Numbered from the stretch's first letter, positions 27,197 to 54,091 are shown. The stretch is 64,000 nucleotides of DNA from an uncultured Aminicenantes bacterium (GCA_965195285.1 CBDAFS010000030.1:1-64000), one strand, 5' to 3'. Translations and numbers: made by a program. The notes: generated by a model not told the origin, from the letters alone.

Positions 27197-27420
27197 ATTG
27201 AATAATGAATATCGAATAACGAACACCGAATATCGAAGGAAAGAAATATCTTACAAACCTTGAAATTTAAACATCGAACAAAGAATAATAAATGTTGAAG
27301 GAAAAGAATCATCTTGAAAACATTGAATAATGAATATCGAATAACGAACACCGAATGTTGAAGGGAAAAAACATATTATTCATAGTGAATCATGAATATC
27401 GAATATCGAATAGCGAAGTG
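27197..27420 (+). repeat. Left arm: degenerate heptamer arrays (GAATATC/GAATAAC/GAACACC family) in about 60-nt blocks
   Basis: Visible tandem 7-mers; exact 38-nt direct repeat at 27194-27231 and 27319-27356. Confidence 0.9.
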
Positions 27421-27427
27421 AAAAGGC

Positions 27428-27799
27428 TCATTTTATATTATCATGTGCTGTTTTTATACTGGAAACAAAAATTGAAATCAGTTCATTGCATTCGAGTATA
27501 AGATCATCTACTTTATCGGAATGTTTAACAAGCGGTTTCCTTTTAATAATTTTCAGTGCAATGTATGTTTCTCTCAATTCCTTGAGTGCGATTTTCATTT
27601 TATGGATAAAATCTTTTCCGGACTCTGCACTCTGGGCCTCACCATATATTAAAGCAGGAGCAGTTCCGGACCTGATTATTTGACCTCCGATATAATTTCC
27701 ATTTCTTGTATTTGGCAACTGTTCAGCTAAACTTAATATATTAACAGAAAAAGAAATCAATCTTTCTTCCAAATCATATTTTTTTTTCTCATCAATCAT
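27428..27799 (-). CDS. Four-helix-bundle protein (TIGR02436 / 23S-IVP / Avd-like)
   Basis: DLEERL..F, QIIRSGTAPAL.YGEAQSAES.KDFIHK.KIALKELRET, E.NELISIF. Confidence 0.93.
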   Translation of the reverse strand: MIDEKKKYDLEERLISFSVNILSLAEQLPNTRNGNYIGGQIIRSGTAPALIYGEAQSAESGKDFIHKMKIALKELRETYIALKIIKRKPLVKHSDKVDDLILECNELISIFVSSIKTAHDNIK

Positions 27800-27932
27800 G
27801 CTTCAAAATTCATTATTCAATTTTTATCTTTTTACATTTCGTCATTCATTATTCATCATTCGATATTCGATATTCATTGGTTGATAATACTTCATCATTC
27901 CTTGTTCGACATTCGTTATTCGATATTCAAAA
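27800..27932 (-). repeat. Right arm: reverse-complement heptamer arrays (GATATTC/ATTATTC/GTTATTC)
   Basis: Inverted relative to 27197-27420. Confidence 0.9.
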
Positions 27933-27936
27933 CTTC

Positions 27937-30060
27937 TTATCTCTTGATTGAATCTTGCACGGCAAAAGTAGCCAGAGATGAAGCATAGAGTTCGTCGAAA
28001 GGAATGGGAGAGTGAGAACCGGTTTGGATGGCATTGAAGAAAGCCAATAATTCCTGTTGATGACCCCGATCCGGTCGTCTCAGCCTGAAAGAAGAGATTT
28101 TATTACCGTAAATCTTCATGGATTTGAAATCATTGATGGTCACCGATTGTCCGCTGCAGAAAATTTCCAAGTATTCGGCCGGCAACCGTCTATGTCCGTT
28201 GGAATAGTAGCTGATGGTGGCGATGCTGCCATTGTCAAAACCCAGGCTGATCACCAAGGTATCCTGAAGGTGAGCCGGATCTCTCAGGCTCTTGGCCGAA
28301 ATGGATGAGACCTCGCCACCGGACAGGAAGATGACCAGATCCACAAACTGACACACTTCACTGATGATTACCCCGCCACCGGTTTCGGGATCATGCACCC
28401 AATGGTCTTTGGGAAATTTTTCGCCATTGATCCGGTAATTGATAGCCTTTGGTTTTTCCGGAGGAAACAGTTCTTTTGCCTTTTGAATAAAGGGAGCAAA
28501 GCGGCGGTTAAAACCTGCCATCAGAACAGGAAGCGGCTGGCTGCGGTTGACCAATAGCCGGTGGGTTTCCCAGATGCGTTTCAGGTCATCCTTGGTCATG
28601 GCCAAAGGCTTTTCTACAAATACATGCTTGCTCATGGTCAGGGCCTTGACAACAAATTCCGCATGGAGATCGTTTCGGGTGGTGATAAATACCGTGTTGA
28701 TACGGTCATCGGCAATGATCTCATCGGCATTGCCGGTACTGTAGGCAAAGCCGTATTTGTCAGCTACCTGGCGGGCATTGTGGCTTCGGGCCGTAATCAC
28801 CCCCACCAGATTGCAGTGTTTCCGGATAAACGGTAAAATCGTTTTGCGGGCAAATCCTCCGGCACCGACAAATCCCACGGCCGGATCGACCGGGTCGGTT
28901 GGTTTTTCCTTTAAGGTTACTTTTTTGGAAAGTTCCTTTTCGCTGTCATAATCAATCACCACGCCGCAAAAAGGCTCGGACCGGCTGAGGATCATGGTGT
29001 AGATCTCCGGGGTATCCACCAGGGGAACCGTATGGGAAATCAATTGATCCACCTGTAATTTCTTATTATTCAACAATTCAATATAAGATTGCAGATTGCG
29101 GTTTTCGGTCCAGCGCACATAGCCGATGGGATAATCCTTTCCCCTTATTTCATAAAAGGGATCTTGGCTGCCGGGTCCGTAGCCGCAGGACATACGCAAA
29201 TCCAACTCTTTACGGAAATAGGGTTTACGGTCAAAACCGGTGGCTACTTTTCCGATCACCACCACTTTTCCTCGCTGGCGACACAATAGCCCGGCCAGAT
29301 TCACCGGATCGGTGGTGGTGGAATCCGCAGCGATAATGACCGCATCCACCCCGTTTCCCTGAGAAATTTCGGAAACGATGTTTTCCAATTCCGGATCAAG
29401 GAAATTCAGGGCAGTTATGGTTTTCAAGCCGGCCAACCCATTTACCCGGGCTTTATCACTGTCAACTCCTATCACATCCACGCCGGCTGCCTGCAATACC
29501 TGGATGACCAGCCGGCCGATCAACCCCAGTCCGATCACCACCGCCTTCTCGCTCAGGCGCAGATCAGCCTGGCGCACCCCCTGAATGGCAATAGCGGCAA
29601 TCCCCGCAAAGGCAGCCTGTTTCAAATCGTTTTTCCCGGGGATCTTCACACAGAGGTTCCGGTTGACTGCCACCACATCGGCATGCCATGCCCCTTTTCC
29701 TGCACAGGCCACTTGATCACCGATTTTGATGTCATTGACCTCGTTGCTGACCGCAATGACTTCTCCGGAGCAGCTGTTGCCCAGGGTGGAAGATGCTTCA
29801 AGCTTGTTCATGACCATACGGTAGGTATCGGCCAAACCGCTCTTCTTGATCTGTTCAATAACCTGACTGACCTCGTTTTTTCGGGATATGGCCCGGGCAA
29901 TATATCCCCCCCGGGCCGCCTTGACCATGTTGCCCTCTTCTCCGCCGCTGATTACCGAATAGTGGTTTCTCACCAACACCTGGCCCCGGCCTAATACCGG
30001 AAAGGGAACTTCCAGAATCCGTATGACACCCTTCATTTTTGTGTAAGTTAGTTGTTGCAC
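27937..30060 (-). CDS. Bi-domain oxidoreductase (Zn-ADH-like + Gfo/Idh/MocA)
   Basis: VIGLGLIG, S.GYGPG..D..YE..G.DYPIGYVRWTENRN, VGAGGF, HVFVEKPL, GFNRRFAP. Confidence 0.9.
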   Translation of the reverse strand: MQQLTYTKMKGVIRILEVPFPVLGRGQVLVRNHYSVISGGEEGNMVKAARGGYIARAISRKNEVSQVIEQIKKSGLADTYRMVMNKLEASSTLGNSCSGEVIAVSNEVNDIKIGDQVACAGKGAWHADVVAVNRNLCVKIPGKNDLKQAAFAGIAAIAIQGVRQADLRLSEKAVVIGLGLIGRLVIQVLQAAGVDVIGVDSDKARVNGLAGLKTITALNFLDPELENIVSEISQGNGVDAVIIAADSTTTDPVNLAGLLCRQRGKVVVIGKVATGFDRKPYFRKELDLRMSCGYGPGSQDPFYEIRGKDYPIGYVRWTENRNLQSYIELLNNKKLQVDQLISHTVPLVDTPEIYTMILSRSEPFCGVVIDYDSEKELSKKVTLKEKPTDPVDPAVGFVGAGGFARKTILPFIRKHCNLVGVITARSHNARQVADKYGFAYSTGNADEIIADDRINTVFITTRNDLHAEFVVKALTMSKHVFVEKPLAMTKDDLKRIWETHRLLVNRSQPLPVLMAGFNRRFAPFIQKAKELFPPEKPKAINYRINGEKFPKDHWVHDPETGGGVIISEVCQFVDLVIFLSGGEVSSISAKSLRDPAHLQDTLVISLGFDNGSIATISYYSNGHRRLPAEYLEIFCSGQSVTINDFKSMKIYGNKISSFRLRRPDRGHQQELLAFFNAIQTGSHSPIPFDELYASSLATFAVQDSIKR

Positions 30061-30080
30061 AGGTAATCTCTCATTTCTTT

Positions 30081-30150
30081 AGTAAGTAGTAGGTAGTAAA
30101 AAGTAGGTAGTAAGAAGTAGGTAGTAAGAAGTAAGTAGTAAGAAGTAAAA
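30081..30150 (+). repeat. Heptamer array (AGTAAGA/AGTAGGT) x10
   Basis: Ten consecutive AGTA-NNN units. Confidence 0.95.
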
Positions 30151-30177
30151 AAATAAACGATTTTCTGAAGACAATAT

Positions 30178-30567
30178 TTACTCCGTAATAATGCAAAACT
30201 TTTCAGGCTTATTTATCATTCCAAAAAGAATTCTTCCGAGTTCCTGATATTTTTCATACAATTTCGTATGCTTTTCTTCCTGAAGATATCCATGTTTGAA
30301 AGCAAAATCCAGCCATACTTCTGTCTCACTTGCTTCTCCGATCGAATCGGTTAATTTTAAAACAAAAGATTTCGGATATCTTCGCTTCGCCCATGCTTCA
30401 GTAATGTTAGCGGAAACAGATCGTGATGATCTTCTGATCTGATCAATTAAAGAATATTTTTCTTCTTTTGGAAAAGTTTTACTGATGTTGAAGATTTCAA
30501 CCGCTAGATCAAAACTCAACTGATATGCAATCAGATCTCTGTAACCCCGATACATAGTTTTTTCCAT
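30178..30567 (-). CDS. Four-helix-bundle protein (TIGR02436)
   Basis: YRDL.AYQ, FPKEEKYSLIDQIRRSSRSVSANI.EAW.KRRY, GEASETEVWL. Confidence 0.95.
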   Translation of the reverse strand: MEKTMYRGYRDLIAYQLSFDLAVEIFNISKTFPKEEKYSLIDQIRRSSRSVSANITEAWAKRRYPKSFVLKLTDSIGEASETEVWLDFAFKHGYLQEEKHTKLYEKYQELGRILFGMINKPEKFCIITE

Positions 30568-30571
30568 TATG

Positions 30572-30668
30572 TACTTCTCACTCCCTACTCCTTACTTCTT
30601 ACTTCTTACTTCTTACTTCTTACTCCTTACTTCTTATTGTTTTTTTTCTACTTACTATATACTACATA
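30572..30668 (-). repeat. Heptamer array (TACTTCT) x9 plus TACATAC-type units, inverted to 30081-30150
   Basis: Nine units at 30572-30634; further units run up to the epimerase stop codon. Confidence 0.95.
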
Positions 30669-31823
30669 CTAGATTTTATAAAATTCTTTATACCATTCCA
30701 CAAATTTTCGAATTCCCTCTTCCACCGGGGTATCCGGCCTGTATCCGGTATCCTTTTCAAGACTGGTGGTGTCAGCCCAGGTTTCCAACACATCGCCTTT
30801 TTGCAGGGGAAGGAAGTTTTTTTTGGCTTCTTTATTCATGGCCTTTTCAATAGCGGTGATGAATTCCATCAAGTTTACTGGTTTTCCTCTGCCAATGTTA
30901 TAGATTTTATACGGGGTGAGGAGCGAGAGGTCGGAGGTGAGGGGCTGGGAGTCTTCGAATGTCGAATGATGAATATCGAACGCCGAATTTCGAGTTTTTG
31001 ATTTTTGATTTACTTCTGAATTCGATATTCGGGATTCGTGATTCGGTGTTCGAAGATTGGGAGTTGGTGGTCTGTCCATAACCCGGGTGATGCCTTCGAT
31101 GATGTCATCGATATAGGTGAAATCCCGGCTCATCCGGCCCTGGTTGTAGACATCAATAGGCCGGTTTTTAATAATGGCCCTGACAAATTTAAAAGCCGCC
31201 ATGTCCGGCCGACCCCAGGGACCGTATACGGTAAAAAAACGAAGCCCGGTGGTGGGAATTTGGTAGAGGTGGCTGTAGGCATGGGCCATGAGCTCGCAGC
31301 TCTTCTTGCTAGCCGCATACAGAGACATGGGCTGGTCTACCATATCGGCCGTGGTAAAGGGCATTTTTTGGTTTAGGCCGTATACCGAAGAACTGGAAGC
31401 ATAGACCAGATGGTTGATCTCATGGTGGCGGCAGGCCTCCAGGATGTTCAGAAAACCTTGGATGTTGGAGTCCATATAAGCCTGGGGATTTTGCAAAGAA
31501 TAGCGCACCCCGGCCTGGGCTGCCAGGTGGCAGACCCGGTCGAATGGTTCTTGTTCGAACAGTTCGGTTATTTTTTCCCGATCCTCCAGGTTTAATTGGA
31601 TAAACCGGTAATTGTCAAGAGTCTGGCTTTCCACGGGGATTCCATACTGAATTTTCTCCGAATCGATTCCGGTGTCCTTCAGCCGGCCGTATTTCAGGTT
31701 GACATCATAGTAGTCATTGATATTGTCCAGGCCTATCAGCGTATGACCACTGTTTGCCATCTGTTTGACCAGGGAATGGCCGATGAATCCGGCGGTTCCA
31801 GTTATTAAGATCTTCAAGGTCAA
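30669..31823 (-). CDS. NAD-dependent epimerase (UDP-glucuronate 4-epimerase-like) with an in-frame repeat-derived insertion
   Basis: ITGTAGFIG, HLAAQAGVRYS, YAASKK, FFTVYGPWGRPDMA, RDFTYIDDI; TTG start with AGGAG RBS. Confidence 0.93.
   Translation of the reverse strand: MTLKILITGTAGFIGHSLVKQMANSGHTLIGLDNINDYYDVNLKYGRLKDTGIDSEKIQYGIPVESQTLDNYRFIQLNLEDREKITELFEQEPFDRVCHLAAQAGVRYSLQNPQAYMDSNIQGFLNILEACRHHEINHLVYASSSSVYGLNQKMPFTTADMVDQPMSLYAASKKSCELMAHAYSHLYQIPTTGLRFFTVYGPWGRPDMAAFKFVRAIIKNRPIDVYNQGRMSRDFTYIDDIIEGITRVMDRPPTPNLRTPNHESRISNSEVNQKSKTRNSAFDIHHSTFEDSQPLTSDLSLLTPYKIYNIGRGKPVNLMEFITAIEKAMNKEAKKNFLPLQKGDVLETWADTTSLEKDTGYRPDTPVEEGIRKFVEWYKEFYKI
30952..31056. mobile_element. 105-bp palindromic heptamer-repeat insertion inside the epimerase CDS
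   Basis: Ends TCTTCGAA...TTCGAAGA; arms of GAA-N4 7-mers; removal restores a GGAGTTG heptamer and keeps the frame. Confidence 0.8.
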
Positions 31824-31839
31824 GGTCTCCTTATATCAT

Positions 31840-31925
31840 AGGTTAAGGTTGAGGTTAAGGTAAAGAAAAAAACAGAAAATTTTTCCTGATTATCTCTCTT
31901 ATTCTTTTCCTTTATCTTTACCTCA
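31840..31925. repeat. Hexamer (AGGTTA/AGGTAA) array with inverted partner
   Basis: 31840-31865 versus 31909-31925. Confidence 0.7.
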
Positions 31926-32068
31926 GTCATCCAATCTTTCCTGCGGCCTTCGGCCGCCTGGGCTTCCGCCGGTACCCTTTTTCGGGGTTTACCGGGCCAA
32001 CCAAAAACAGGCTCAAACTCATCAATCTGGCTCATACTGATGATTTTCATTTATGGCTCAAGTCAGGA

Positions 32069-32106: not shown

Positions 32107-33075
32107 CTATCTTCTGAATTTTTTTAATTCCCGCTCAAATCCATCAATCATCAGTTTTATTTCATGGTTCTCAATGGATTCCAGCATAAAACGCCTTACC
32201 ATCTGGGAAACCGCCACATAATCCATTTCCACCAGTTCCCCGATCTCCCGCAGCCGCAGGTCACTGTATTTCTTCAAACCATACAGGAACAGCTTTCGGA
32301 AGTGGTTGTTTTTGCGCTTTTTGTACAGCAGCTCTCTTTTAACCCTGAAGCGCCGGCATATGATGCGGGAGATATCTTCGGGTTGGAGCCGCCTCAGACT
32401 CTTCAGGGCCGGTTTTTCCCGGATCTCTCCCATTCTCAGGTCAGCCTCTATCTTGCGGGCAATCTTTCGGCGAAATTTTTCACCGCCTACGATCGACTGC
32501 ACCCCGTAGAAATCTTCTTTTTTTATCCCCTCATCCTGATTCAGCAGGTCATAGACATACTTGCGGTAAAATTTCTTTTTGTTATTAAATTCGCTCAGGA
32601 GTTCGGCGGTGACCAGCCATAGCGGCCGTTTTTCTCTGCCGATGTAGCGGGCAAAACTGCTCCAGGGGTAATCTTCGGGTTTTTTAACCTTACCCTCCCG
32701 CAACGGGGTCAGGTGGATGTAAGCGCTCAACCTCATCAAATAACCGTTTTTTTCCACCAGAACGGCCCGGTAGCGGCCCTGGAAAACCGAGCCCTTGACC
32801 CCGTACTTGAGCTTGAACCAGTTTGAGTAGCTGGAGTTTAAATGGTGCATACAGCGGGAGAGATTGCCCTCCGGGGTTTCGATGAGCATGTGGAAACGAT
32901 CGTCCAGAAGGGTATAGCAGTGGACCTTGAGGTTGAACTTATCCACCACCTCGCCGGTTTTTTCCAGGAATTTCAGCCGGTCAACCTTTTCATGAAAAAT
33001 CTTCTCATGCTTGTCTCCCTGGGACATCACATGGTAACAGGCGCCCTTGTACTCTATACGGGGTTGTCGAGCCAT
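32107..33075 (-). CDS. REP-associated tyrosine transposase (RAYT, Y1_Tnp) with C-terminal DnaA_C-like HTH; HUH motif degenerate
   Basis: MARQPRI, YHV, G.VFQGRY, YIHL.P, YPWSS; C-terminal LREIGE...DYVAVS; RFH replaces HxH. Confidence 0.88.
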   Translation of the reverse strand: MARQPRIEYKGACYHVMSQGDKHEKIFHEKVDRLKFLEKTGEVVDKFNLKVHCYTLLDDRFHMLIETPEGNLSRCMHHLNSSYSNWFKLKYGVKGSVFQGRYRAVLVEKNGYLMRLSAYIHLTPLREGKVKKPEDYPWSSFARYIGREKRPLWLVTAELLSEFNNKKKFYRKYVYDLLNQDEGIKKEDFYGVQSIVGGEKFRRKIARKIEADLRMGEIREKPALKSLRRLQPEDISRIICRRFRVKRELLYKKRKNNHFRKLFLYGLKKYSDLRLREIGELVEMDYVAVSQMVRRFMLESIENHEIKLMIDGFERELKKFRR

Positions 33076-33081
33076 TTGAGA

Positions 33082-33110
33082 AATGTATCACAGTAGATTT
33101 TAAATGTCAA
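33082..33110 (-). promoter_or_regulatory. Sigma70 promoter of the RAYT gene, probably leaderless
   Basis: TTGACA-17 nt-TACATT with TGn extension; ATG 6 nt after the -10 and no RBS. Confidence 0.7.
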
Positions 33111-33153
33111 ATGTTAAGACACGTCCCCAAGAGATTTAAAAGAAAAAGTACTC

Positions 33154-33479
33154 AGGTTGAGGTTAAGAAAGAAGGTTAAGGTTGAGGTTGAGGAAAAGAA
33201 AAAAACCACTGGTCATTAGAACTCTCTGGGGACTTGTCATTATATCTATCAAGTTCTTGTCATTGAAACCCTCTGATTTTGGTCATTAAGAACTATCATA
33301 ACATATCATTACAGTTCTCCAGGGTTCTTTATGACGCACGCATTATGTGCTAATGACAAGCTCTCTATAGATCTTAATGACACGAGCGAAGCGAGTAAAT
33401 GACCAGATTAGTGATATTCATCTTCAAAACTTCTTATCTTCTGAACTTCTGTCTCCTTAATTCTAAGGTTAAGGTTAAG
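33154..33479. repeat. Composite element A, copy 1: hexamer array + GTCATT/ATGAC 22-24 nt periodic array + CTTCT octamers
   Basis: GTCAT at 33212, 33236, 33259, 33282 (variant at 33305); ATGAC at 33331, 33353, 33377, 33399; homologous to 47336-47666. Confidence 0.85.
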
Positions 33480-33510: not shown

Positions 33511-34842
33511 ATGTTACATTTATTTACGAAAAAGAGGAAACTTTCAGTGGAAGCGGAAAAGGAACTATATCAACTCAAACAGGAAAACCAGCGGCTGATG
33601 CGGGCCCTGGAAGAAGTGTCTATTTTAAACGAGATTGCCATTGCCATCAGCTCCACCCTGTCCCTGGACCGGATTCTGGACCTGGTGGTGCAGAAGAGCC
33701 TTAAACACATGAAGGCCGAACAGGGGGCGGTGCTGTTGCTGGATGAGAACAAAGAGGAAAAACCCTTCCAGACCATGATCCGGGGCTGGGATACCACCAC
33801 CGATACCCTGCCCTTCCGTCTGGACACCCAGCTCACCGGCTGGATGCTGAAAAACCGTCAACCCCTGCGCATCAATGACTTGAAAAAGGATGAGCGCTTC
33901 CACCTGGCCGACCCGGAGACCATTCCCATCCGTTCGCTGCTGTGTACGCCCCTAATGTTGAAAGGCCGCATGATCGGGTTGGTGACCCTGTTTAACAAAA
34001 AATCAGAAGAGGAATTCAGCAGTGAAGACCAGCGCATGATCTCTATCATCGCCGCCCAGTCAGCCCAGATCATTGAAAATGCCCGGCTGCTCAAAGAGGA
34101 ACAGGAACTGATCAAGATGCAGGAAGAGCTGAGGCTGGCCTTTGAGATTCAGACCAATCTGCTGCCGGAAAATCCCCCGGCCATAGAGGGATATGACATA
34201 TTCGGCAAAAGCATCCCGGCCAAGGAAGTGGGGGGGGATTATTTTGATTTTATCCCGGACCGTGAAACCCAGCTGGTTTTCTGCCTGGGAGACGTGTCGG
34301 GCAAGGGCATGGGAGCGGCCCTGCTCATGGCCAATCTGCAGGCCACCATCCGGGGCCAGTCCCAACTTGACCTGTCCATACCCGAATGCATGGGAAACGC
34401 CAACCGGCTGCTGTTCCGCAACACCAGCCCTGAGAAATTTGCCACCCTGTTTTACGGCTGGCTGGATTACCGGAATCATGAACTCCGTTACTGCAATGCC
34501 GGCCATAACCTGCCCATCCTTATGACGGAAAAAAAAGATTTCCAGCTGCTCAGTGAAGGGGGAATCATCCTGGGCTGCCTGGAAGCCGTGAGCTTCGAGG
34601 AACAGAAAATCCCCATCCGGACCGGAGATATCCTGCTAATCTATTCGGATGGCATCACCGAGGCCCTGGATGACCATGATCAGGAATTCGGCGAGGCCAG
34701 GCTGATGGAGTTGCTGAAGGAAAATATTGCTAAATCCGCCGTAGAGATGATCGACACCATCATTGACGGGGTCACCCGTTTCAGCCGGGATGCGCCCCAG
34801 ACCGATGACATGACCCTGATGATCATCAAACGTATCGGTTAA
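33511..34842 (+). CDS. GAF + PP2C/SpoIIE phosphatase (RsbU-like)
   Basis: GAF domain, then EVGGDYFD, GDVSGKG, NAGH, YSDGITEA, DDMT. Confidence 0.93.
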   Translation: MLHLFTKKRKLSVEAEKELYQLKQENQRLMRALEEVSILNEIAIAISSTLSLDRILDLVVQKSLKHMKAEQGAVLLLDENKEEKPFQTMIRGWDTTTDTLPFRLDTQLTGWMLKNRQPLRINDLKKDERFHLADPETIPIRSLLCTPLMLKGRMIGLVTLFNKKSEEEFSSEDQRMISIIAAQSAQIIENARLLKEEQELIKMQEELRLAFEIQTNLLPENPPAIEGYDIFGKSIPAKEVGGDYFDFIPDRETQLVFCLGDVSGKGMGAALLMANLQATIRGQSQLDLSIPECMGNANRLLFRNTSPEKFATLFYGWLDYRNHELRYCNAGHNLPILMTEKKDFQLLSEGGIILGCLEAVSFEEQKIPIRTGDILLIYSDGITEALDDHDQEFGEARLMELLKENIAKSAVEMIDTIIDGVTRFSRDAPQTDDMTLMIIKRIG

Positions 34843-35661: not shown

Positions 35662-36172
35662 GTTAAGGTAAAGGTAAAGGTTGAGGTTAAGGTTAAGAAA
35701 AAAAATAAAACTATTAAAACCTCCTTAATTTTCATATCTCTTTACCTTTACCTTTGCCTCAACCTTAGAATTAAGAAGTCAGGAGATAGAAATCCGAAAT
35801 CCCAAATTCTAAATCCGAAACAAAGAGATTATTAATAAACATTGAATGATGAACACCAAATATTGAATGATGAATATCGAATAACGAACACCGAATATCG
35901 AAGGAAAGAAATATCTTACAAACCTTGAAATTTGAACATTGAACAAAGAATATCGAATGTCGAAGGAAAATAATCATCTTAATTAACAGTGAATGATGAT
36001 CACCGAATGTCGAATCATGAATGTCAAAGTGAAAGATTCATTTTTTTTTACACTTCATCATTCCTTGTTCGTTATTCATTATTCGAAATTCAAAATTAAA
36101 TACTATTTTCCTTTACCTTAACTTTTGCCTTTACCTTTACCTTTACCTTTACCTCTACCTTTACCTTTGCCT
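35660..36172. repeat. Intergenic repeat mosaic: hexamer hairpin, AAATCCG heptamers, gene-less four-helix-bundle cassette, hexamer array
   Basis: Modules at 35660-35767, 35790-35824, 35841-36095 and 36110-36172 fill almost the whole space between two convergent stop codons. Confidence 0.88.
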
Positions 36173-42184: not shown

Positions 42185-42310
42185 CTCGATTCTCCTCGTT
42201 TGACTTGGTTATACCACATTTCTCTCAACAAAAAAAAGTCTGTCATTCATGGTTTGACATCTCCGGGAGTTTGGTCGGACAAGGAGTCCGGATTGGACAG
42301 AGGGAAATGA

Positions 42311-42695: not shown

Positions 42696-42872
42696 AAGAA
42701 AAAATTGGCGGGCGTAGCAAACTATCTCCGGAACGGCTTGTGAAACCATTTTCTCGAATATCGAAAAATGGTGGAACGCTCACAAAAATGAGAACATTTT
42801 TGTGTAAAGTGAAGGAGATGTTTGTGAAAGCCCGGAGGAGTTCTATAGCTGACTCAAAGGTTGAGAATGTTC

Positions 42873-46413: not shown

Positions 46414-46479
46414 TCTTAAGATTAACTGAGGAGTTAGAAGACAGAAGAAATAAATCCGAAATTTAAATCATTTTAGCTC

Positions 46480-46699
46480 AGGTTAAGGTAGAGGTTAAGG
46501 TTAAGAAAAAAATTGTTGTAGGGGCAAACGGTGGTTTGCCCGAATCAGAAATCTATTACAAATTGATCAAAAAAGAATAGGGCGAATTTCCATTCGCCCC
46601 TACAGTTAACCAATTACTAATCACATTTTACGCTTTACGTATTACGCCTTACGTCTTTTCCTTTACCTCTACCTTTAACTTTACCTTCACCTTAACCTC
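46480..46699. mobile_element. REPIN-like doublet (46518-46603) nested between inverted hexamer arrays; inverted copy of 42387-42545
   Basis: 46580-46657 is the reverse complement of 42387-42464 with one mismatch. Confidence 0.88.
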
Positions 46700-46710
46700 A
46701 GTTTATTTTC

Positions 46711-47271
46711 TTAATCGATTCCCAGGAGGTCATCCTTGAATCCCTGGCCCGGACCCGGTTTGGGACCGATCCAGCAGGCAAAGAGCGCATCGGCAAATGC
46801 CTTGCCTTTAATGATGCCTTTGAAGGATTTCTTAACGGTGACCTTGGTGCCCTTTCCCGGGATATAGGTGAAGGCAATCCGGTCTCCGTCCTTGACATCT
46901 TCCATCCAGCTACAGAGTTTTTCGAATTGTTTTTTCAATTCAGGTGAATGATTCGGAGTATTGGCTTCCAGGCCATCCATCCATGCTCCATTGAGCTTCT
47001 TTTTTCCCACACTGCGCAAAAAATGCATGAGGTTCCGGCGCATTTTATCCGCTTTTAATATCTTGTCGGCGTCTTTCTCCTTTTCGGGAAGGTAGAGGCC
47101 GTCCACATAAACTTTGAATACCACTTTTTTTCTCAATGCCATGCCGTTGAGAACCAGCTTGGTCCCCTCCACGGTCACGGTGTTGGGCATTTCCACTCCT
47201 TTAAAGGTCGCTGAATAAACCGGCAGGACCATAGTCAGGATAAGCAAAAGCAGCCATAATTTTTTCATCAT
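46711..47271 (-). CDS. Chalcone-isomerase-like exported protein
   Basis: Signal peptide, LVLNG.ALRKK..FKVYV.GLYL, WIG.KP; start at 47271 after AAGGAGG. Confidence 0.88.
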   Translation of the reverse strand: MMKKLWLLLLILTMVLPVYSATFKGVEMPNTVTVEGTKLVLNGMALRKKVVFKVYVDGLYLPEKEKDADKILKADKMRRNLMHFLRSVGKKKLNGAWMDGLEANTPNHSPELKKQFEKLCSWMEDVKDGDRIAFTYIPGKGTKVTVKKSFKGIIKGKAFADALFACWIGPKPGPGQGFKDDLLGID

Positions 47272-47335
47272 TTTTCCTCCTTTCAAATCGTACTGGTTGT
47301 TCAGAAGAATGGTAGTATGGAGAAAAATAAAAGTC

Positions 47336-47666
47336 AAGGCTGAGATTGAGGTAAAGGTAAAGGCAAAGGTAGAGGTAAAGGCAAAGAAGGAAAACCGCTG
47401 GTCATTAGAACTCTCTGACTTTTGTCATTTAGAACTATCATAACTTGTCATTGAAACTCTAAAGAACTTGTCATTAAAAAACTATTATAACTTGTCATTA
47501 TAGTTCTACAGAGCTCTTAATGACGTGAACGCAGTGAACTCATGACGCATGTTTTACATGCTAATGACGCACGCATCGCGTGCTAATGACACGAGCGAAG
47601 CGAGTAAATGACAAGTTGATTTGTTCTTAACTTCAGAACTTCTTATCTTCTGAATTCTAAGGTTAA
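47336..47666. repeat. Composite element A, copy 2
   Basis: GTCATT at 47401, 47424, 47447, 47470, 47494; ATGAC at 47520, 47542, 47564, 47586, 47608; 29-mer identical to 33375-33403. Confidence 0.88.
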
Positions 47667-47702
47667 GAGAGCACAAATTATGATGCCAATCATCCCAATG
47701 AA

Positions 47703-47711
47703 TGCTATAAT
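47703..47711 (+). promoter_or_regulatory. Extended -10 promoter TGCTATAAT
   Basis: Perfect TGnTATAAT; implies the next CDS starts at GTG 47719 or ATG 47731 rather than 47680. Confidence 0.6.
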
Positions 47712-47730
47712 GGGTGGTGTGAAAACGGTC

Positions 47731-50562
47731 ATGCAGGAAACACACTTTCCCCAATGGATTGAAGCCGGATTCCGGACTTATGGTGATGATCCCTGGTTTT
47801 TTCTAAGGGAATTAGCCCAGAACAGCCGGGATGCCGGAGCCAGAACGGTCCGGATATCCGTGGCCTCATCCGACCGGGAGCAGGAGATTTTAGCCTTCCT
47901 GGATGACGGCAGCGGGATGTCCTTTGCCCATGCCCGGAATTTTTTGTTTCGCCTGTATGCCTCCAGCAAAGCCCATGACAAATATTCGGCCGGCATGTAT
48001 GGCATCGGTTTCTGGACCGTTCTGCGATTCCAGCCTGAGTTGATTGTCATCGAATCCAAAACCGGAGATCAATCCTGGTCCATTGAGATCGATTCCCGAT
48101 TCCGGGTCAAAACCACCACCTGCCAATTAAGCCGGAAGGGTACCCGGATCACCCTGATCCGGAAATCCATAAACCAAAACCCGGAACCGTTTACGAAAGT
48201 CGTGAAAGATCGGGCCATTCATTATTGCGGTTATCTGCGTCGCAACAACCATCAGGCCAGCCCCCTGCCCGTATTCTTTGAAGACCGGTGCATTTCCCGC
48301 GAATTCGAATTGCCCCTGGTTATCGGATCTCCTTTCAAAAGGGGACCGGTAGAAGGCCTGGTCGGGTTTGATCATCAACCCCGGGTGATCCTGTACGCCC
48401 GGGGATTGCCGGTATGGGAGGGTACCCGTCTGGATGAGCTCTTTCACCTCCCCCCTGATAAGGAACCGGAATCGGAAATCGGCCCGGGGCTGGCCCCGGT
48501 GTTCTTAATCAACGGAAACCACCTGGATGTAAATATTTCCCGGAAAACCATCATGGAAAACCGGGCCCTGGAGAAAGTTAAAAAAATCGCGGAAAGGGAA
48601 ATGTCCCATTTAATCGACAATTATTCCAACCGGATATTTCACCACAGCTGGCTTCAAAAACTGCGGCTCCGGATTATAAAAATAGGTCAAAAATGGAAAC
48701 CCCGCTTCTGGGTATCCCTGTTCATTTTACTGTTGATCCTGATTCCCCTGGAAATTGTCCTGCTCAAGACCCTGTTGCCATCCAGGGCCGGAACCAACAA
48801 CAGCTCCAGACCGGGGGCCAATGCCTTTCTGAAACCGGAAATCCAATCCTATCCGGGGGCCACTGTATTACCGTTTTCCCGGCCCCAGCCCCTGAACATG
48901 TCCTATTCTCCCCAAACAGATATCTGGTTCAAGGTTTTCACCGCCGGCACCTACCGCCCCAGACAGGGTTTCATCCGCTCTTCAACGCAACCGGTCTTCC
49001 CCCTGGCAACCAACCGGTCCTGTGCGGATAAAAAAATATTGGTTCGCCTGAAAATACCGGGAAGCGGCAGCCTGTTCCTGCCCCGGCCAATCGGCCATGA
49101 CATTCAGCCCGACAGCCTGGTCGTCAACAGGATTCCGGTCCAAGGGGCTAAGATGACTTCCGGAGGTGAAACAATCATCAATCTGTCATTCTCAGACGGG
49201 GAAATCCGCTATTTATGCTGCCCGACAACCGAGAGGGAAGACACATTGCCATCAAGTTCGGGACAATGGACCCGGCTCCCCGTACGGCTGAAGATCCCGG
49301 CCCGGCTCGAAAGGATTCTGGAATCCGCTGCTGAATTAAATCCCGGTCAGAAAATCCAATTAGCCATTAAACTCAGCATCGACAACCTGTCATACGACAC
49401 CTCTCCGGAAACCGCCCGGGCTTATCAGCAAGCCGGGAATGGTTCCGACTGGGTTGAAAAGGTCCTGAACATCGGCAGGGGAGACTGTGATATCATCAAT
49501 GGCCTCACCGTATTGTGGCTGAGGAAGATGGGTATCCCGGCCCGGCTGGTTATCGGGCTGGTCGGCGTTCAGGGCACCATCCAAACCAGCCTGCACGCCT
49601 GGACCGAATACAAACTTCAGGGCTGGCAAATCTTAGATACCTCCCGGCTGACTGCCAGGGCAACCCCGTTGGCAGCGAATCAGTTCCTCCAGGAACCTCC
49701 CGGGCCAAGCACACCGGAAAAATCCCGTTTATGGCTATATCTGCTGCTCTCCATCCTGATCTGCCTGATCCCGGTCTTGTTTTTTGTATTCAAAAAAAAT
49801 CAAAAACCATCAATTCCTCAAGGCCAACAGATGGATGAAATAAAACAGAACCTGGCCAGGATGGCCATCGGCGCCCTGGTCCAGCCCCGGTTATGGGATG
49901 ACCACGCCAGCTTCCGGGAATACCGGATCATTCCCACCGTAAACAATAAGGCCATTTCCCTGAAAAGGGCACTGACCCTGGCTGACCAGGGAAAACTGTT
50001 AGCCGGTGGACCGACCAACCCGCTTTCAACAGAATTCAGTCAACAGGGGCACCCGGTTCTGGACCTGGATGACCGGGCCTTTTCAGGACTGATTCGCTTA
50101 ATCCCCGGCGTGGTTGATCTGAACCTGATCCGGGATTTGAAAGCCAGGGTATTGCCAATACCCGAAGATCCGTCCCTGTCCGGCTTCCTGGAACAGGTCA
50201 ATCAAACCCTGAAAACCATAAAAAGCTCATTGCCGCCCTGCCTGCCCGGCCCCGGGTTGAACCACCAGGAAATGCTTCGGGTCAACTTTCCCGGGCCACC
50301 GGTATCAGCGGGCGGAATCCTGCGGTCATACTGGCCGGGAAACCGAAACCATGTGTCCGGGCTTCCCCGGCAATTCTTAGCCATCAATCCCCAAAGCCAA
50401 CGGATCCGGGACCTGGTCTACCTGTATGCTAAAAACCCTTCCCTGGCCAGGTTCCGGATGATTAAAATGGTCATCAACCAGGCCGGATTGTTAGGGGAGC
50501 AAAAAAAGAAGTTGTTAAGAAAAACCTCGCGCATTCTGCTTCAAGAGGACCTGATCCCATGA
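47731..50562 (+). CDS. GHKL (Hsp90/MutL-like) ATPase fused to a membrane-flanked transglutaminase-like domain
   Basis: RELAQNSRDAG, DDGSGM, GMYGIGF, GT.I; TM helix; GDCD, HAWTEY, WQILD triad; second TM helix; start uncertain. Confidence 0.78.
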   Translation: MQETHFPQWIEAGFRTYGDDPWFFLRELAQNSRDAGARTVRISVASSDREQEILAFLDDGSGMSFAHARNFLFRLYASSKAHDKYSAGMYGIGFWTVLRFQPELIVIESKTGDQSWSIEIDSRFRVKTTTCQLSRKGTRITLIRKSINQNPEPFTKVVKDRAIHYCGYLRRNNHQASPLPVFFEDRCISREFELPLVIGSPFKRGPVEGLVGFDHQPRVILYARGLPVWEGTRLDELFHLPPDKEPESEIGPGLAPVFLINGNHLDVNISRKTIMENRALEKVKKIAEREMSHLIDNYSNRIFHHSWLQKLRLRIIKIGQKWKPRFWVSLFILLLILIPLEIVLLKTLLPSRAGTNNSSRPGANAFLKPEIQSYPGATVLPFSRPQPLNMSYSPQTDIWFKVFTAGTYRPRQGFIRSSTQPVFPLATNRSCADKKILVRLKIPGSGSLFLPRPIGHDIQPDSLVVNRIPVQGAKMTSGGETIINLSFSDGEIRYLCCPTTEREDTLPSSSGQWTRLPVRLKIPARLERILESAAELNPGQKIQLAIKLSIDNLSYDTSPETARAYQQAGNGSDWVEKVLNIGRGDCDIINGLTVLWLRKMGIPARLVIGLVGVQGTIQTSLHAWTEYKLQGWQILDTSRLTARATPLAANQFLQEPPGPSTPEKSRLWLYLLLSILICLIPVLFFVFKKNQKPSIPQGQQMDEIKQNLARMAIGALVQPRLWDDHASFREYRIIPTVNNKAISLKRALTLADQGKLLAGGPTNPLSTEFSQQGHPVLDLDDRAFSGLIRLIPGVVDLNLIRDLKARVLPIPEDPSLSGFLEQVNQTLKTIKSSLPPCLPGPGLNHQEMLRVNFPGPPVSAGGILRSYWPGNRNHVSGLPRQFLAINPQSQRIRDLVYLYAKNPSLARFRMIKMVINQAGLLGEQKKKLLRKTSRILLQEDLIP

Positions 50563-52064
50563 ATCCTGAGAATCTCTTTTCCATAGATGTGGATGCCCAT
50601 TTGGAAAAATTGACCCGCCATACCTATCGCTCCCGCTCCCATTACCCGGTGGAATTGGTTCGTCTGGCCCTGATGAGGGGAGCCTCTCAGATCTCTGTCA
50701 ACCTGAATGACAGCCAGGTAGAAATCCGGGACAATGGAACCGGCATCGAAGACACCCTTATCCATGAATTGAAATCCCTGATGCAAGCCTCTCATGCCGA
50801 TGATATCAGGGAACAAGCCATGCTCGACCTGCAAAACTCCGAAGGCATCGGTTTATTGGCCATGTTTTCGCCCTCTCCCTTCCGGATTATCATAAAAAAT
50901 TCAACTCCGAACCATGGGCATTACTTAGATTTTCAGGAAGGCAAGCTCCGAGAATTTTCCAGACACAACTCCGGAGCCGGCACCGAGCCTTTTGTTCCGG
51001 GTACCCGCATCCTTCTGTACCGAAAGGGCCAATCCAGGGAACTGGAAATCAAAATCCTGAAGGAATACTGCCGGGGAGTTGTACGGAGCATTCTGCTGAA
51101 CGGACAACCCATCAGTCAACAGGCCATCATCCGCAACCAGCTGGCCTGGTTGAGATTCGATCACTATATCAATGAAGGAATGGGAGAAGTCGGAATCCCC
51201 AAACGGGGAGATGTCTGCAGAATCTGGATGTTAAGCCAGGGAATTCCCCTGACCAGAAAAATCATTGCCCCCTGGCGAGGATTCGTATTTGATGCGGCCA
51301 TCGAGTACAGCGATGACCTGACCACAGAACTGCTGGACCGCCTATTAACCGAAGTCAGGAGCCTTTACCAACATTTAATAACCAAATACCCGAAACTCCC
51401 TGCACTGACCGGGCAACGGATTGAGGAATTGATATTCAAGCACCACCGGCTGAGCGGAGATTCAACCCTGGTGGAAAAATTAGCTGTGTTCCCGGCCTTG
51501 AATTCACCCTGCCTGTTGACCCTGCCCCAATTAAGAGAATTAGCCATTGATAGCAGATTATTGGCCATTCCGCCCGATGCCCCGGCATCCGAATATCAGG
51601 ACATTGAAAAAACCATACTCCGACTGAGTCAGCAGCAAGCCGATTATCTGGTTAACCATGTCAGTATCCCCATTCGTTTTCTGCCAATGACCAGCCGGCA
51701 TTCCCGGATGAGAAGCTGGATCTCAAGGATGATGGCCAAATGGAAATCAACATACAGGCGAATTACCCGGGGAAAAAATAAAATCCTCCCCCCGGATCAA
51801 CTGTCAGACCGGGAGAAAAATTTCAGCATGGCCTTATCCCAATACCTGAACCGGAAGACCTCTGATTTTAACACACCGCTGATCCAAGAATCCGGTTTTA
51901 TCAATGGATGGGGCCGGGTACCCGGGTGGCTGTTGATCGATGAGACCGGGTTGGAACCATCACGGCTGGTCATCCGGCGAAAACATGCATTAGTCAGAAA
52001 AGCAGTGGAGTCGGTTTTCCAAAACCCGAACAATATTGAATATATCGGCCCCTTATTCCAGTGA
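50559..52064 (+). CDS. Degenerate GHKL ATPase-domain protein
   Basis: ELVRLAL..GA, IRDNGTGI, GIGLL, GT.I; ATGA overlap with the upstream gene. Confidence 0.65.
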   Translation: MNPENLFSIDVDAHLEKLTRHTYRSRSHYPVELVRLALMRGASQISVNLNDSQVEIRDNGTGIEDTLIHELKSLMQASHADDIREQAMLDLQNSEGIGLLAMFSPSPFRIIIKNSTPNHGHYLDFQEGKLREFSRHNSGAGTEPFVPGTRILLYRKGQSRELEIKILKEYCRGVVRSILLNGQPISQQAIIRNQLAWLRFDHYINEGMGEVGIPKRGDVCRIWMLSQGIPLTRKIIAPWRGFVFDAAIEYSDDLTTELLDRLLTEVRSLYQHLITKYPKLPALTGQRIEELIFKHHRLSGDSTLVEKLAVFPALNSPCLLTLPQLRELAIDSRLLAIPPDAPASEYQDIEKTILRLSQQQADYLVNHVSIPIRFLPMTSRHSRMRSWISRMMAKWKSTYRRITRGKNKILPPDQLSDREKNFSMALSQYLNRKTSDFNTPLIQESGFINGWGRVPGWLLIDETGLEPSRLVIRRKHALVRKAVESVFQNPNNIEYIGPLFQ

Positions 52065-53606
52065 ACGCACCGGCCGGATAAAATTTTCCAGATCAAACGG
52101 ACAGCCTAACATATAGCCCTCATCAAACCGCACCACCCAGGCCCCGTTTATGCCGTATTGATTACTGGTCCAGATATTTTTCTGTGTTCTGGAAAATATA
52201 TTATCAATATGAAGTGAATCCTCTCGATTGGCACTGGTGAGCAACGAGGCTGCCTCTTTGAGGGTGGGCAGGCGCCAGTCTCCAAAACCGGCAAATTTTT
52301 GCCGGTTAAACCATTCCACCCAGCCTTTGACCCGCTCATGTTTCATGGGCCGGATGGAACCGGAATAATACCACATTAATCCGGTGGTCGTATCCACAAT
52401 AACCATTCGTTTTCCGATGATTTTTTTCTCGAACTGATTGTTGAAACGCCCGTATCTGTTCCAGATCCGGTCATAGAAATTATTCCTTTTGATCATGGAT
52501 TTAACCGAATCCGAATCCAGTATCCGAGGATCAGAACCAACCCGTATATATTTAAGGGCAATTACCACGGCCAGGGCCAGCACCATGAAAAAAAATATGG
52601 TTTTTACCATCAATCTTATTTTCTGTCCCCTGGACTTTTTTTTATTCGATTTCAGACTGGAATCGACTTTCCTGGGAATGGATTTTGAAGACCGGGTTAA
52701 CGTTGATGGGGTCAATGGGAGTGAAATCTCCTTGGTTTGATCGGAAATCTTAATTGCTTTCCGCATTTTGGATTTTCCGGGACGGGTTTCCGAAACCATC
52801 CGGGCATCCAGCAGTGGCTTCAACAATCCGTTCAGGGCTTCTTCGGTGCGAACCCGTTTGCGCCGGTCCTTTTCCATGAGCCGGTTGATCAGGGGCTGAT
52901 ACTTTTTTAAATTCGAGGGCAAGCGGGGAATGGGTTGTTCGATATGCTTGAGAATGACCCCCAGGGTATTTTCCGCATCATAGGGGACCTTTCCGGTCAG
53001 CAACTCATAAAGGACAACCCCCAGACTGTAAATATCGCTGCGGCCATCAACCCTTTCTCCTTTTGCCTGCTCGGGACTGATATAACTGGGGGTCCCGATG
53101 GACATGCCGGTTTTGGTCAATTTGGTCGAGGCATTGATGGGGCTGGCAATGCCAAAATCCAGAACCACCGGAGTGCCGTCTTTACGAAACATGATGTTAT
53201 CCGGCTTTATATCCCGATGAATAAAACCCATGCGGTGGGCATAAAACAGGGACCCGGCAATTTGCTTGATGAGTAACAGCGATTCTTCGGGTTTGCCACG
53301 GCGATAAGCCTTTAACCGTTCCTTCAAACTCTCCTGAAGGTATTCCATGACAATGTAGTAACTATCCCCGGTTTTGCCCACATCATAGACCGTAATGATA
53401 TTGGGATGCACCAGTTTGGAAAGGGTATGGGCCTCGCGTTTGAACCGCTTTAGAAAAAGTGAGTCCCGGAAAATCGAGGGGATCAGAATCTTGATGGCCA
53501 CCATCCGGTTCAGATTTTTTTGAACCGCCAGGTACACATCGGCCATGCCTCCGCGCCCTAATAATTTCATAAATTTATATCCGGGAATTTCAGGAAATTT
53601 CGGCAT
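52053..53606 (-). CDS. Hanks-type Ser/Thr protein kinase with TM helix and C-terminal DUF1566 domain
   Basis: LGRGGMA.V, VAIK, HRDIKPDN, DFG, GTP.Y.SPEQ; D..TGLMW, DWRLPT..E, RPVR; start likely ATG 53606. Confidence 0.93.
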   Translation of the reverse strand: MPKFPEIPGYKFMKLLGRGGMADVYLAVQKNLNRMVAIKILIPSIFRDSLFLKRFKREAHTLSKLVHPNIITVYDVGKTGDSYYIVMEYLQESLKERLKAYRRGKPEESLLLIKQIAGSLFYAHRMGFIHRDIKPDNIMFRKDGTPVVLDFGIASPINASTKLTKTGMSIGTPSYISPEQAKGERVDGRSDIYSLGVVLYELLTGKVPYDAENTLGVILKHIEQPIPRLPSNLKKYQPLINRLMEKDRRKRVRTEEALNGLLKPLLDARMVSETRPGKSKMRKAIKISDQTKEISLPLTPSTLTRSSKSIPRKVDSSLKSNKKKSRGQKIRLMVKTIFFFMVLALAVVIALKYIRVGSDPRILDSDSVKSMIKRNNFYDRIWNRYGRFNNQFEKKIIGKRMVIVDTTTGLMWYYSGSIRPMKHERVKGWVEWFNRQKFAGFGDWRLPTLKEAASLLTSANREDSLHIDNIFSRTQKNIWTSNQYGINGAWVVRFDEGYMLGCPFDLENFIRPVRSLE

Positions 53607-53900
53607 TTTATTGCTCTTGAACAACGATTGTATAATCAATACTATATATTTTTCAAGAAAAAGTCAACCTGAAGGAAACGCTATAATCAATTATTAAAAT
53701 GCCGGGAGATGTTATTCGTTCACCATTGCGGGTATGACCATCAACATATTCTTATTCTATAAATGCGTCGCAATGACGGCCGCCTCACCAGTAGTGCACG
53801 TCAACAGCTCCACATTTATTGACGCAGAAGAATATGCGATGGTGCCCATCCCCTCCATTTGCGTTCCTTCACAACATCTGCCGGCATTCTCAAATTTGAA

Positions 53901-54091
53901 TAACAACCGTTCATGATCGAGCGAACCTCAGGGAGGTAATTGGGCACCGGCGAGAACGAGTCGAATGGTCCTCTCTTCAGTGGAAAAAATGTCTCTGTCT
54001 GAGGCCGAAGGCCGAGTTGGACATTTTTAATGAGACGAGTTCGTATTCCGGTCAATTATCGGACGGGTGAGCGAGACATGAACTGTTGTTA
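53901..54091. other. 191-bp long imperfect palindrome (MITE-like element or structured RNA)
   Basis: Terminal 15-bp inverted repeat with one mismatch, nested stems, apical GGCC-GAA-GGCC. Confidence 0.7.

Follow-up and report, generated by a model that had tools for sequence, protein, structure and literature searches.

Tandem-repeat hairpins enclose four-helix-bundle genes in an Aminicenantes genome and resemble intervening sequences of ribosomal RNA

The spacers of a 64,000-nucleotide (nt) stretch of DNA from an uncultured Aminicenantes bacterium (GCA_965195285.1, CBDAFS010000030.1:1-64000; here called the window) contain long hairpins with arms made of inverted arrays of short tandem units, and two of these hairpins hold in their loops a small gene for a four-helix-bundle (4HB) protein. 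The association is general and specific to the flanks of 4HB genes: inverted tandem arrays surround all six such genes of this genome and recur around 4HB genes of relatives and of other phyla. Hairpin arms change by whole units, and modules and 4HB genes are gained or lost at fixed sites, between close relatives. With moderate confidence, we interpret the hairpins as stem-loop elements of the intervening-sequence (IVS) type that lie outside ribosomal RNA. An initial annotation of positions 27,197–54,091 had proposed a system that joined 4HB proteins, modular hairpins and a protein resembling the RAYT transposases that accompany repetitive extragenic palindromes (REP). The link between 4HB genes and hairpins stands and extends far beyond the window; the link to the RAYT-like protein is not supported.

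Two genes in the loops of hairpins

The two gene-filled hairpins, at 27185–27936 (element 1) and 30061–30668 (element 2), each consist of a 4HB gene between inverted arrays, which we delimited with Tandem Repeats Finder (TRF). In element 1 the downstream-side arm (27185–27417) contains 3.7 copies of a 62-nt higher-order unit of GAATATC-type heptamers, and in the RNA fold it pairs with the upstream-side arm (27838–27932), the ATTCATT/TTCGATA heptamers of which are its complement. The arms of element 2 are 9.9 heptamers in a 14-nt unit, TAGTAAG+AAGTAGG, on the downstream side (30080–30148) and 9.3 TACTTCT heptamers on the upstream side (30572–30636). On the sense strand the upstream arm is purine-rich and includes Shine-Dalgarno-like GGAG runs close to the ATG; only 4 nt separate the end of the array (30572) from the start codon (30565–30567).

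Both genes are on the minus strand and both exceed the curated cut-offs of their family. The first (27428–27799, 123 amino acids) encodes a divergent member of TIGR02436/PF05635, with 41.7 bits for PF05635 (cut-off 33.8) and 73.4 bits for TIGR02436 (cut-off 24); the second (30178–30567, 129 amino acids) scores 112.1 and 106.6 bits. Profile matches thus bear out both Avd-like candidates of the initial annotation as well as its single HUH-fold protein.

In the predicted folds of both sense RNAs the arms pair around the open reading frame (ORF), with a minimum free energy of −177.5 kcal/mol for element 1 (z = −4.55) and −164.7 kcal/mol for the minus-strand RNA of 30061–30668 (z = −6.07). None of 20 shuffles of either element was as stable as the real sequence. 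The genome also has a gene for RNase III (236 bits).

The closest known system is the IVS of 23S rRNA. In the passages of PMC4990558 that describe the Coxiella IVS, an S23p ORF occupies the loop of a stem made of terminal inverted repeats, the 5′ part has 2–3 tandem heptamers in strain-variable number, and RNase III cuts the stem at the first repeat. Among the three mechanisms offered in the initial annotation, IVS-like processing at the RNA level fits best: the architecture matches the Coxiella element as it appears in those passages, and processing by RNase III would follow the same pattern. The likeness to the IVSs of Leptospira, Coxiella and others, so far as these sources describe them, extends to the gene family, the position in the loop, the inverted-repeat stem, the strain-variable heptamers and, presumably, embedding in a host transcript.

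There are also differences. Both window elements have the stem with an ORF in its loop, but their hosts are protein-coding operons or intergenic spacers, here between protein-coding genes of a polysaccharide cluster, rather than helix 25 or 45 of 23S rRNA. Compared with the rRNA elements, the window elements have longer arms, made entirely of tandem units; ORF-less modules nest in one another, one module lies inside a coding gene, and cleavage by RNase III, the enzyme that excises the rRNA version, is a prediction here.

Distribution of 4HB genes and hairpins

All six PF05635 genes of this genome, two in the window and four on contig C42, are flanked by inverted tandem arrays, and the repeat unit differs at each copy. 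The six proteins share 29–48% identity, and the product of gene 1 is undetectable by BLAST from the others.

For relatives of the same class we retrieved 30 loci and tested 23, from 21 genomes, after setting aside those with weak, partial or contig-end-cut matches (L020, L021, L023, L024, L025, L027 and L028). Most of these relatives are fragmented metagenome-assembled genomes (MAGs), the contigs of which break in repeats. We scored the two 300-nt flanks of each locus by their best inverted match and compared this score with 300 nulls from mismatched pairs; it exceeded the null maximum at 10 of the 23 loci and the 95th percentile at 15, and the arms are likewise tandem 6–8-mers.

We then considered 78 loci found across phyla by a scan with a five-sequence alignment, a sample in which Bacteroidota and relatives of 4HB gene 2 are over-represented. 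By record title they are chiefly from Bacteroidota, with several from cultured isolates, Maribacter and Flavobacterium among them; the others represent Ignavibacteria, Acidobacteriota, WOR-3, Chloroflexota, Verrucomicrobiota, Cloacimonadota, Armatimonadota, Nitrospinota, Thermodesulfobacteriota and one cyanobacterium. Measured against 600 mismatched pairs, a null that is inflated because the loci share unit types, 50 of the 78 exceeded the 95th percentile and 11 the 99th. The signal is confined to the immediate flanks: the inner 300 nt scored above 30 at 46 of the 69 4HB loci with full flanks, compared with 0 of 69 for outer flanks 385–700 nt away and 1 of 66 for control loci, which were epimerase genes not size-matched within the same genomes.

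The arrangement of the arms is also consistent. Both are periodic in 37 of 50 loci, and the aligned arms have a median length of 32 nt; median distances are 49 nt from the upstream arm to the first in-frame ATG and 27.5 nt from the stop codon to the downstream arm. On the sense strand the purine content of the upstream arm exceeds 60% in 67 of 92 loci and falls below 40% in none (0/92). Neighbouring genes tend to be co-oriented with the 4HB gene (upstream neighbour, 63/68; downstream neighbour, 53/67; both, 51/66).

Turnover between relatives

We compared the window with two further genomes, G003 (88–94% nucleotide identity) and G001 (same genus, 70–80% identity), and with contigs from other samples (X2, X3 and X4). 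Arms differ by whole units. In the G003 orthologue of element 1 the 62-nt unit occurs about once, compared with 3.7 copies in the window, and the opposite arm is much shorter; the 4HB protein encoded between the arms is 91% identical in amino acid sequence to that of gene 1. Element 2 has a left array that is shorter by 14 nt in X2 (at 30101) and by 7 nt in X4 (at 30116), and 25 nt of the array at 33154 are missing in X2; all of these unit-sized indels lie within long collinear contigs. A single 5571-nt contig from X3 differs at three sites: the hairpin inside the epimerase gene (69 nt compared with 126 nt in the window), the empty hairpin at 31873–31956 (431 nt compared with 84 nt) and positions 33164–33171 (50 nt compared with 8 nt).

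Whole modules and genes also come and go. An AGGTTR hairpin between the epimerase and Y1 orthologues has a 4HB gene in its loop in G001 (contig C265) and is empty in the window (31828–31928). G001 has a second AGGTAA-type hairpin that contains an unrelated 4HB paralogue, and three of its four 4HB genes lack a counterpart of more than 40% identity in the present genome. In G001 only about 100 nt, without arrays, separate the macroglobulin and SpoIIE genes, which are 688 nt apart here, and nested hairpins built from other units take up about 500 nt between its TonB receptor and chalcone-isomerase-like genes. The initial annotation had looked to insertion polymorphism among strains as a test of its proposal; because arms and modules differ between close relatives in the G001, G003 and X2–X4 comparisons, such polymorphism is present. 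Read-mapping joints with a short side below 30 nt (31859>33418, 31866>42357, 33205>33422, 42354>42711 and 46538>46579), and the X2 joint 31816>31955 (side 59; intervening sequence not given), were not used as evidence, because both sides of such short-sided joints are repeated modules.

The epimerase gene of G001 has different heptamers at the same loop as the hairpin of the window (30945–31060). These are direct tandem heptamers, GGTGRCT/GGGGGCT (G001:C265:480–700), at the surface loop orthologous to window positions 30900–31100, so that one protein site has been hit by different arrays in two species.

An alternative is that the hairpins are made in place and serve the host, with arrays born of replication slippage at intergenic sites acting as terminators, mRNA stabilizers or translational controls and the 4HB genes being ordinary, immobile genes under the control of their own stems. 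The slippage-like indels between strains, the different arrays at the same sites in G001 and the window (epimerase loop and TonB/chalcone spacer), the GGAG runs beside the ATG of gene 2 and the age of the 4HB paralogues all agree with that explanation. It accounts less well for the recurrence of the same unit families at many unrelated sites and in congeners, for an orthologous hairpin that is empty here and gene-filled in G001, for unrelated 4HB paralogues in AGGTAA-type hairpins of G001, for a hairpin in frame inside a coding gene and for 4HB repertoires that differ between congeners. We consider it unlikely, although it is the alternative that we take most seriously.

Empty, intragenic and nested hairpins

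The filled, empty, intragenic and nested states that had been reported from the sequence are all present. The empty hairpin at 35859–36095 is a paralogous copy of element 1, aligning arm for arm with 27194–27932, with a T-rich loop of 26 nt where element 1 has its gene. A second empty hairpin, of AGGTTA/CTTTAC type (31828–31928), separates the epimerase and Y1 genes. The intragenic case, a GAATATC-type hairpin at 30945–31060 (−41.4 kcal/mol, z = −5.0), lies in the epimerase gene (30669–31823, minus strand); an alignment with six orthologues shows that it lengthens a variable loop of the protein by about 32 residues and keeps the reading frame.

Nesting is clearest in an ORF-less composite at 35660–36186 (fold z = −5.2), in which a GAATATC hairpin lies inside AGGTTA/TTTACC arms. 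Its parts are an AGGTTA/CTTTAC hairpin (35660–35765), a GAAATCC array (35789–35820), the empty GAATATC hairpin described above and a TTTACC array (36106–36186). Two further composites are mirror images around two genes (42305–42560 and 46495–46700). The first extends over 42305–42700 and comprises an AGGTAA array, an ACGTAAA array, two inverted REP-like units (GTAG plus a GC hairpin), TTTTGAA/TTTCGGA arrays and a second AGGTAA array; the mirror composite, at 46468–46700 (z = −6.0), comprises an AGGTTA array, two REP-like units, a TTTACGC array and a CTTTAC array.

The two composites share a 99-nt inverted repeat (42374–42472 and 46572–46670; 93% complementary) and a second, nested pair (42514–42560 and 46495–46541). 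Together they bracket a 4-kb block of two divergent genes, for a SpoIIE phosphatase and a TonB receptor, which in G001 are about 12 kb apart. The block could be an invertible or transposed segment.

Repeat families and inverted arrays

With TRF and a repeat finder, we detected at least seven non-random families of 6–8-nt tandem units, in both orientations, in the spacers between 27 and 48 kb, where at least six had been claimed. AGGTAA/AGGTTA hexamers occur at 31840, 33154, 33464, 35660, 42317, 42662, 46480 and 47349, and the complementary hexamers at 35740, 36106 and 46655. GAATATC-type heptamers occupy 27200–27417, 27838–27928, 30955–31045 and 35859–36084. TAGTAAG/AAGTAGG arrays are found at 30080–30148 with their complement at 30572–30636, ACGTAAA-type arrays at 42351–42417 and 46627–46654, and TTTCGGA/GAAATCC arrays at 35789–35820 and 42571–42634. 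A module spaced by GTCATTA repeats is present at 33203–33405 and 47392–47620. Units of GTAG plus a GC hairpin are located at 42441, 42514, 46518 and 46580, inside two of the composites of the window; this family has 36 units and frequently forms inverted doublets. Because modules sit inside arrays, every module has repeated flanks, and the discrete ends and missing target duplications of the initial annotation are only tentative.

The two copies of the GTCATTA module belong to longer tracts. The tract at 33154–33479 consists of an AGGTTG array (33154–33193), the module, AACTTCTG octamers and a second AGGTTA array; that at 47328–47660 (z = −3.0) consists of an AGGTAA array, the second module copy and AACTTCTG octamers. 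The module contains (33375–33400 and 47584–47610) the heptamer GCGAAGC, a motif known as a DNA mini-hairpin of unusual stability, as well as short GC palindromes between TAATGAC repeats.

Genome-wide, we counted 442 arrays of non-trivial units with a period of 6–8 or multiples thereof, and scored as partners those with a reverse complement within 1 kb above the 99th percentile of 1326 random-segment comparisons. The inverted geometry noted initially is confirmed for 53 of the 442 arrays (C30, 18; C42, 13; C16, 6; C41, 6; C15, 3; C55, 3; elsewhere, 4). The two contigs that bear 4HB genes, C30 (the contig of the window) and C42, account for 31 of the 53. Window spacer sequences recur clustered on C15, C16, C41, C42 and C46. 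The spacers fold much better than shuffles (z from −1.9 to −6.0; 40 mononucleotide shuffles). An Rfam scan of 26–56 kb yielded only two matches, to miRNA models, far under the gathering scores (E = 0.036–0.059), and there was no rRNA match in that interval.

A separate REP/RAYT-like layer

The HUH-fold protein of the window is a Y1 protein of 322 amino acids with a C-terminal DnaA-type helix-turn-helix (HTH) domain (32107–33075, minus strand). It matches Y1_Tnp with 40.6 bits and Bac_DnaA_C with 24.2 bits, below the 31.5-bit cut-off; its score of 61.8 bits for the RAYT model NF047646 (REP_Tyr_transpos) is likewise below the cut-off of 80, and its sole match in the Protein Data Bank is TnpA-REP (4ER8, E = 0.0037). 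The protein reads R-F-H where 15 of the 16 other aligned sequences read H-x-H (a truncated copy on C3 has H-Y-H-F). The catalytic tyrosine is retained, with T for N in the Y-x-x-x-N-P motif, so that the intact HUH site of a RAYT is lacking. The flanks of the gene have a best inverted-repeat score of 21 and only one REP-like half-site (33098–33125).

Y1_Tnp matches number 17 in the genome; the 14 full-length proteins (290–326 amino acids) share 30–67% identity and are therefore old paralogues rather than insertion-sequence copies. The 14 full-length Y1 proteins with DnaA-type HTH domains are encoded on contigs that include C8, C14, C47, C50, C15, C26, C27, C49 and C12. Nine of the 17 genes are bordered on either side, at no more than about 40 nt, by inverted repeats of their own (17–33 nt); in another two, one of the arms is 56–93 nt from the gene. 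Motifs derived from these flanks occur 37 (GACGGTGC-type) and 46 (GGGGTCA-type) times, compared with 5 for a scrambled control. By sequence, this small genome seems to harbour several REP/RAYT-like systems side by side.

One mechanism in the initial annotation was HUH-mediated movement of single-stranded DNA with 4HB genes as cargo or helpers; in such a mechanism the Y1 proteins would cut and join the hairpins as REP-like substrates and carry the 4HB genes as cargo. The number of Y1 genes, the inverted repeats and recurring motifs at their flanks and the presence of the GTAG-plus-GC-hairpin family inside two window composites speak for this mechanism. The Y1 flanks, by contrast, are short unique palindromes and not tandem arrays, and the window protein has the substitutions and the single half-site described above. 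Gene counts show no coupling either: across 41 genomes of the class, which as kin are not independent, 4HB and Y1 counts are uncorrelated (rho = 0.20, P = 0.22). Seven of these genomes have 4HB genes only (four of the seven are 95–99% complete), 9 have Y1 genes only, 21 have both and 4 have neither. A control genome, that of Bacteroides thetaiotaomicron, has a PF05635 match and no PF01797 match, and 4HB cassettes are present in many phyla. Movement of the tandem-array hairpins by HUH proteins is therefore quite improbable, and the data do not support a tie between the REP/RAYT-like layer and the array hairpins or 4HB genes.

Mosaic clusters of REP sequences (bacterial interspersed mosaic elements) with their RAYT (TnpA-REP, 4ER8) nonetheless share features with the window: extragenic palindromes in mosaic clusters, GTAG beside a GC hairpin in one family, and Y1 genes flanked by their own palindromes, as is true of most Y1 paralogues here. 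The tandem-array hairpins themselves are not REP palindromes, and the Y1 protein of the window differs from a RAYT in its sub-cut-off score, extra HTH domain and missing first histidine of the HUH motif, and in having no count coupling to 4HB genes.

Relation to other repeat systems

A third proposal is templated repeat synthesis by a reverse transcriptase with Avd-like proteins. The 4HB proteins belong to the same four-helix-bundle superfamily as Avd, the accessory protein of diversity-generating retroelements (DGRs), and Avd, according to the sections of bioRxiv 10.1101/2023.10.23.563531 that concern it, binds RNA stem-loops in DGRs and is the obligate partner of the DGR reverse transcriptase. 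Both Avd-specific models, however, score below their cut-offs for the window proteins (bAvd, 38 bits; DivGenRetAVD, 29 bits with gene 2, cut-off 80). We found no reverse transcriptase (0 RVT_1 matches in this 94.87%-complete genome) and saw no pair of template and variable repeats, and we regard this proposal as hardly credible.

Elhai et al. reportedly described, in Genome Res in 2008, cyanobacterial arrays of heptamers (short tandemly repeated repetitive, or STRR, sequences) together with small dispersed repeats (SDRs), nested and with no obvious transposase. To our knowledge, no link of these repeats to 4HB genes has been described. The window shares with them tandem heptamers in spacers with nested small elements; by description, the host phylum differs, and SDRs are discrete units of 21–27 nt whereas the elements here are arrays. 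SDRs were not found outside Nostocaceae according to the relevant part of PMC5861425, and the present host is Aminicenantes-like.

TAACTGA heptamers are direct repeats in Beggiatoaceae, cyanobacteria and some Bacteroidetes (MacGregor 2015, PMC4679880, in the passages that deal with their distribution). They are also intergenic and tandem, form part of larger heptamer assemblages in Elizabethkingia and break contigs, as those passages relate, but they are direct repeats upstream of start codons. The same passages mention neither pairing of inverted arrays around a gene nor the protein family of the 23S IVS, and the term ‘23S’ occurs 0 times in the text (PMC4679880).

The hairpin inside the epimerase gene, the one intragenic case considered here, has a parallel in the palindromic elements of Rickettsia, which are palindromic repeats inserted in frame in protein-coding genes and are unrelated in sequence and host. 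In the literature that we searched, which did not extend to supplements, family-database comments or STRR papers, there was no account of non-rRNA 4HB genes flanked by inverted tandem arrays.

Gene context of the window

The host genome (3.28 Mb in 62 contigs, 42% G+C) is Aminicenantes-like, as its RpoB is 76–97% identical to those of Candidatus Aminicenantes MAGs, and the window corresponds to positions 1–64000 of contig C30. The first 32 kb belong to a single surface-polysaccharide cluster whose genes all run along the minus strand; they include genes for glycosyltransferases, flippase-like and Wzy-like proteins, two DegT aminotransferases, an oxidoreductase and an epimerase. The G+C content rises from 0.26–0.39 before about 27 kb to 0.45–0.53 after it (1–27000 compared with 27000–64000); the step coincides with the start of the repeat-rich stretch, and the low-G+C part is the polysaccharide biosynthesis cluster.

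Around the hairpins, the minus strand encodes a VanZ-like protein (26774–27226), a GFO/IDH-type oxidoreductase (27937–30060), an alpha-2-macroglobulin of 2003 amino acids (36173–42184), a SpoIIE phosphatase (42873–44090), a chalcone-isomerase-like protein (46711–47337) and a Ser/Thr kinase (52053–53639), in addition to the 4HB, epimerase and Y1 genes. The plus strand encodes a GAF-SpoIIE phosphatase (33511–34842), an ABM protein (34879–35661), a TonB-dependent receptor (44206–46413), a HATPase/transglutaminase protein (47680–50562) and an MBOAT protein (54168–55697). Neither of two small minus-strand ORFs in repeat-rich spacers (31820–32050, 76 amino acids; 35771–35977, 68 amino acids) matches a Pfam or NCBIfam model, and the second, which overlaps heptamer arrays, may be no gene.

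The far end of the studied range (53640–54091) is occupied by a different dispersed element. Two dispersed segments, at 42700–42840 (about 130 nt) and 53895–54090 (about 200 nt), match some 11 and 9 other stretches of the genome, short partial ones included, and have many copies in congeners, with no Rfam match. They are 11 kb apart in the window and adjoin at four other loci (on C10, C20, C46 and C55), and are possibly a composite miniature inverted-repeat transposable element or an RNA gene of unknown kind.

Discussion

Our interpretation is that the hairpins are IVS-type stem-loop elements resident outside ribosomal RNA. In the autonomous form, a small 4HB gene of the TIGR02436 (S23p/Avd-like) family occupies the loop of a long stem, the arms of which are inverted arrays of 6–8-nt units, purine-rich upstream of the gene and pyrimidine-rich downstream on the sense strand. 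The element lies just downstream of a co-directional host gene, and from this position co-transcription with that gene is most likely. By analogy with the 23S rRNA IVS, the stem most likely forms in RNA and would be a substrate for RNase III, and the 4HB protein may bind its own stem. ORF-less hairpins would be derivatives or relatives of the same modules, stacked in one another's loops and in one case placed in frame in a gene. Arms grow and shrink by whole units, probably through slippage or unequal exchange, and the elements may themselves be mobile and spread between sites. The Y1/HUH proteins would form a separate REP/RAYT-like layer that the hairpins do not need.

Several observations weigh against this interpretation. 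The six 4HB paralogues are old, and no recent copy-and-paste event is visible in this genome. Hairpins occur on C41 and C16 with no 4HB gene nearby, and 28 of the 78 cross-phylum loci do not exceed the 95th percentile of the null. The median gap of 49 nt between arm and ATG leaves space for an internal promoter in many loci. Watson–Crick pairs make up only about 79% of the best single alignment of the arms (3359 of 4265 positions), and a strand-bias test for pairing in RNA was null (G:U-type mismatches, 182 sense and 167 antisense, P = 0.45), although this test is weakened because tandem arms pair in several registers.

A bolder extension, which is speculative and in our judgement rather unlikely, is that a 4HB gene with its tandem-repeat stem constitutes a widespread and unrecognized mobile cassette. 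Using neither a transposase nor a reverse transcriptase, it would home into apical hairpin loops, whether these lie in rRNA, in mRNA spacers or in other cassettes. A pentameric Avd-like protein would bind the periodic arms, about one unit per subunit, and promote insertion or array growth; ORF-less nested hairpins would be non-autonomous derivatives, and the 23S rRNA IVS would be the rRNA-resident minority. For the Coxiella IVS, a mobile element whose ORF serves mobility is given only as an old hypothesis in the passages of PMC4990558 on its origin.

In practical terms, the hairpins break assemblies, as contigs of G003 and G001 end in them, and they can add in-frame segments to proteins. The origin of the rRNA IVS and the function of its S23p/4HB ORF have been open since the 1990s, and the relevant passages of the Coxiella paper (PMC4990558) offer hypotheses only. 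If the architecture of a stem plus a gene is the rule outside rRNA for this very common family, across many phyla and cultivable isolates, the rRNA elements would be one particular instance of something general. The question would then become testable in cultivable laboratory strains, and the tandem heptamer arrays of cyanobacteria, Beggiatoaceae and Bacteroidetes would gain a candidate partner protein.

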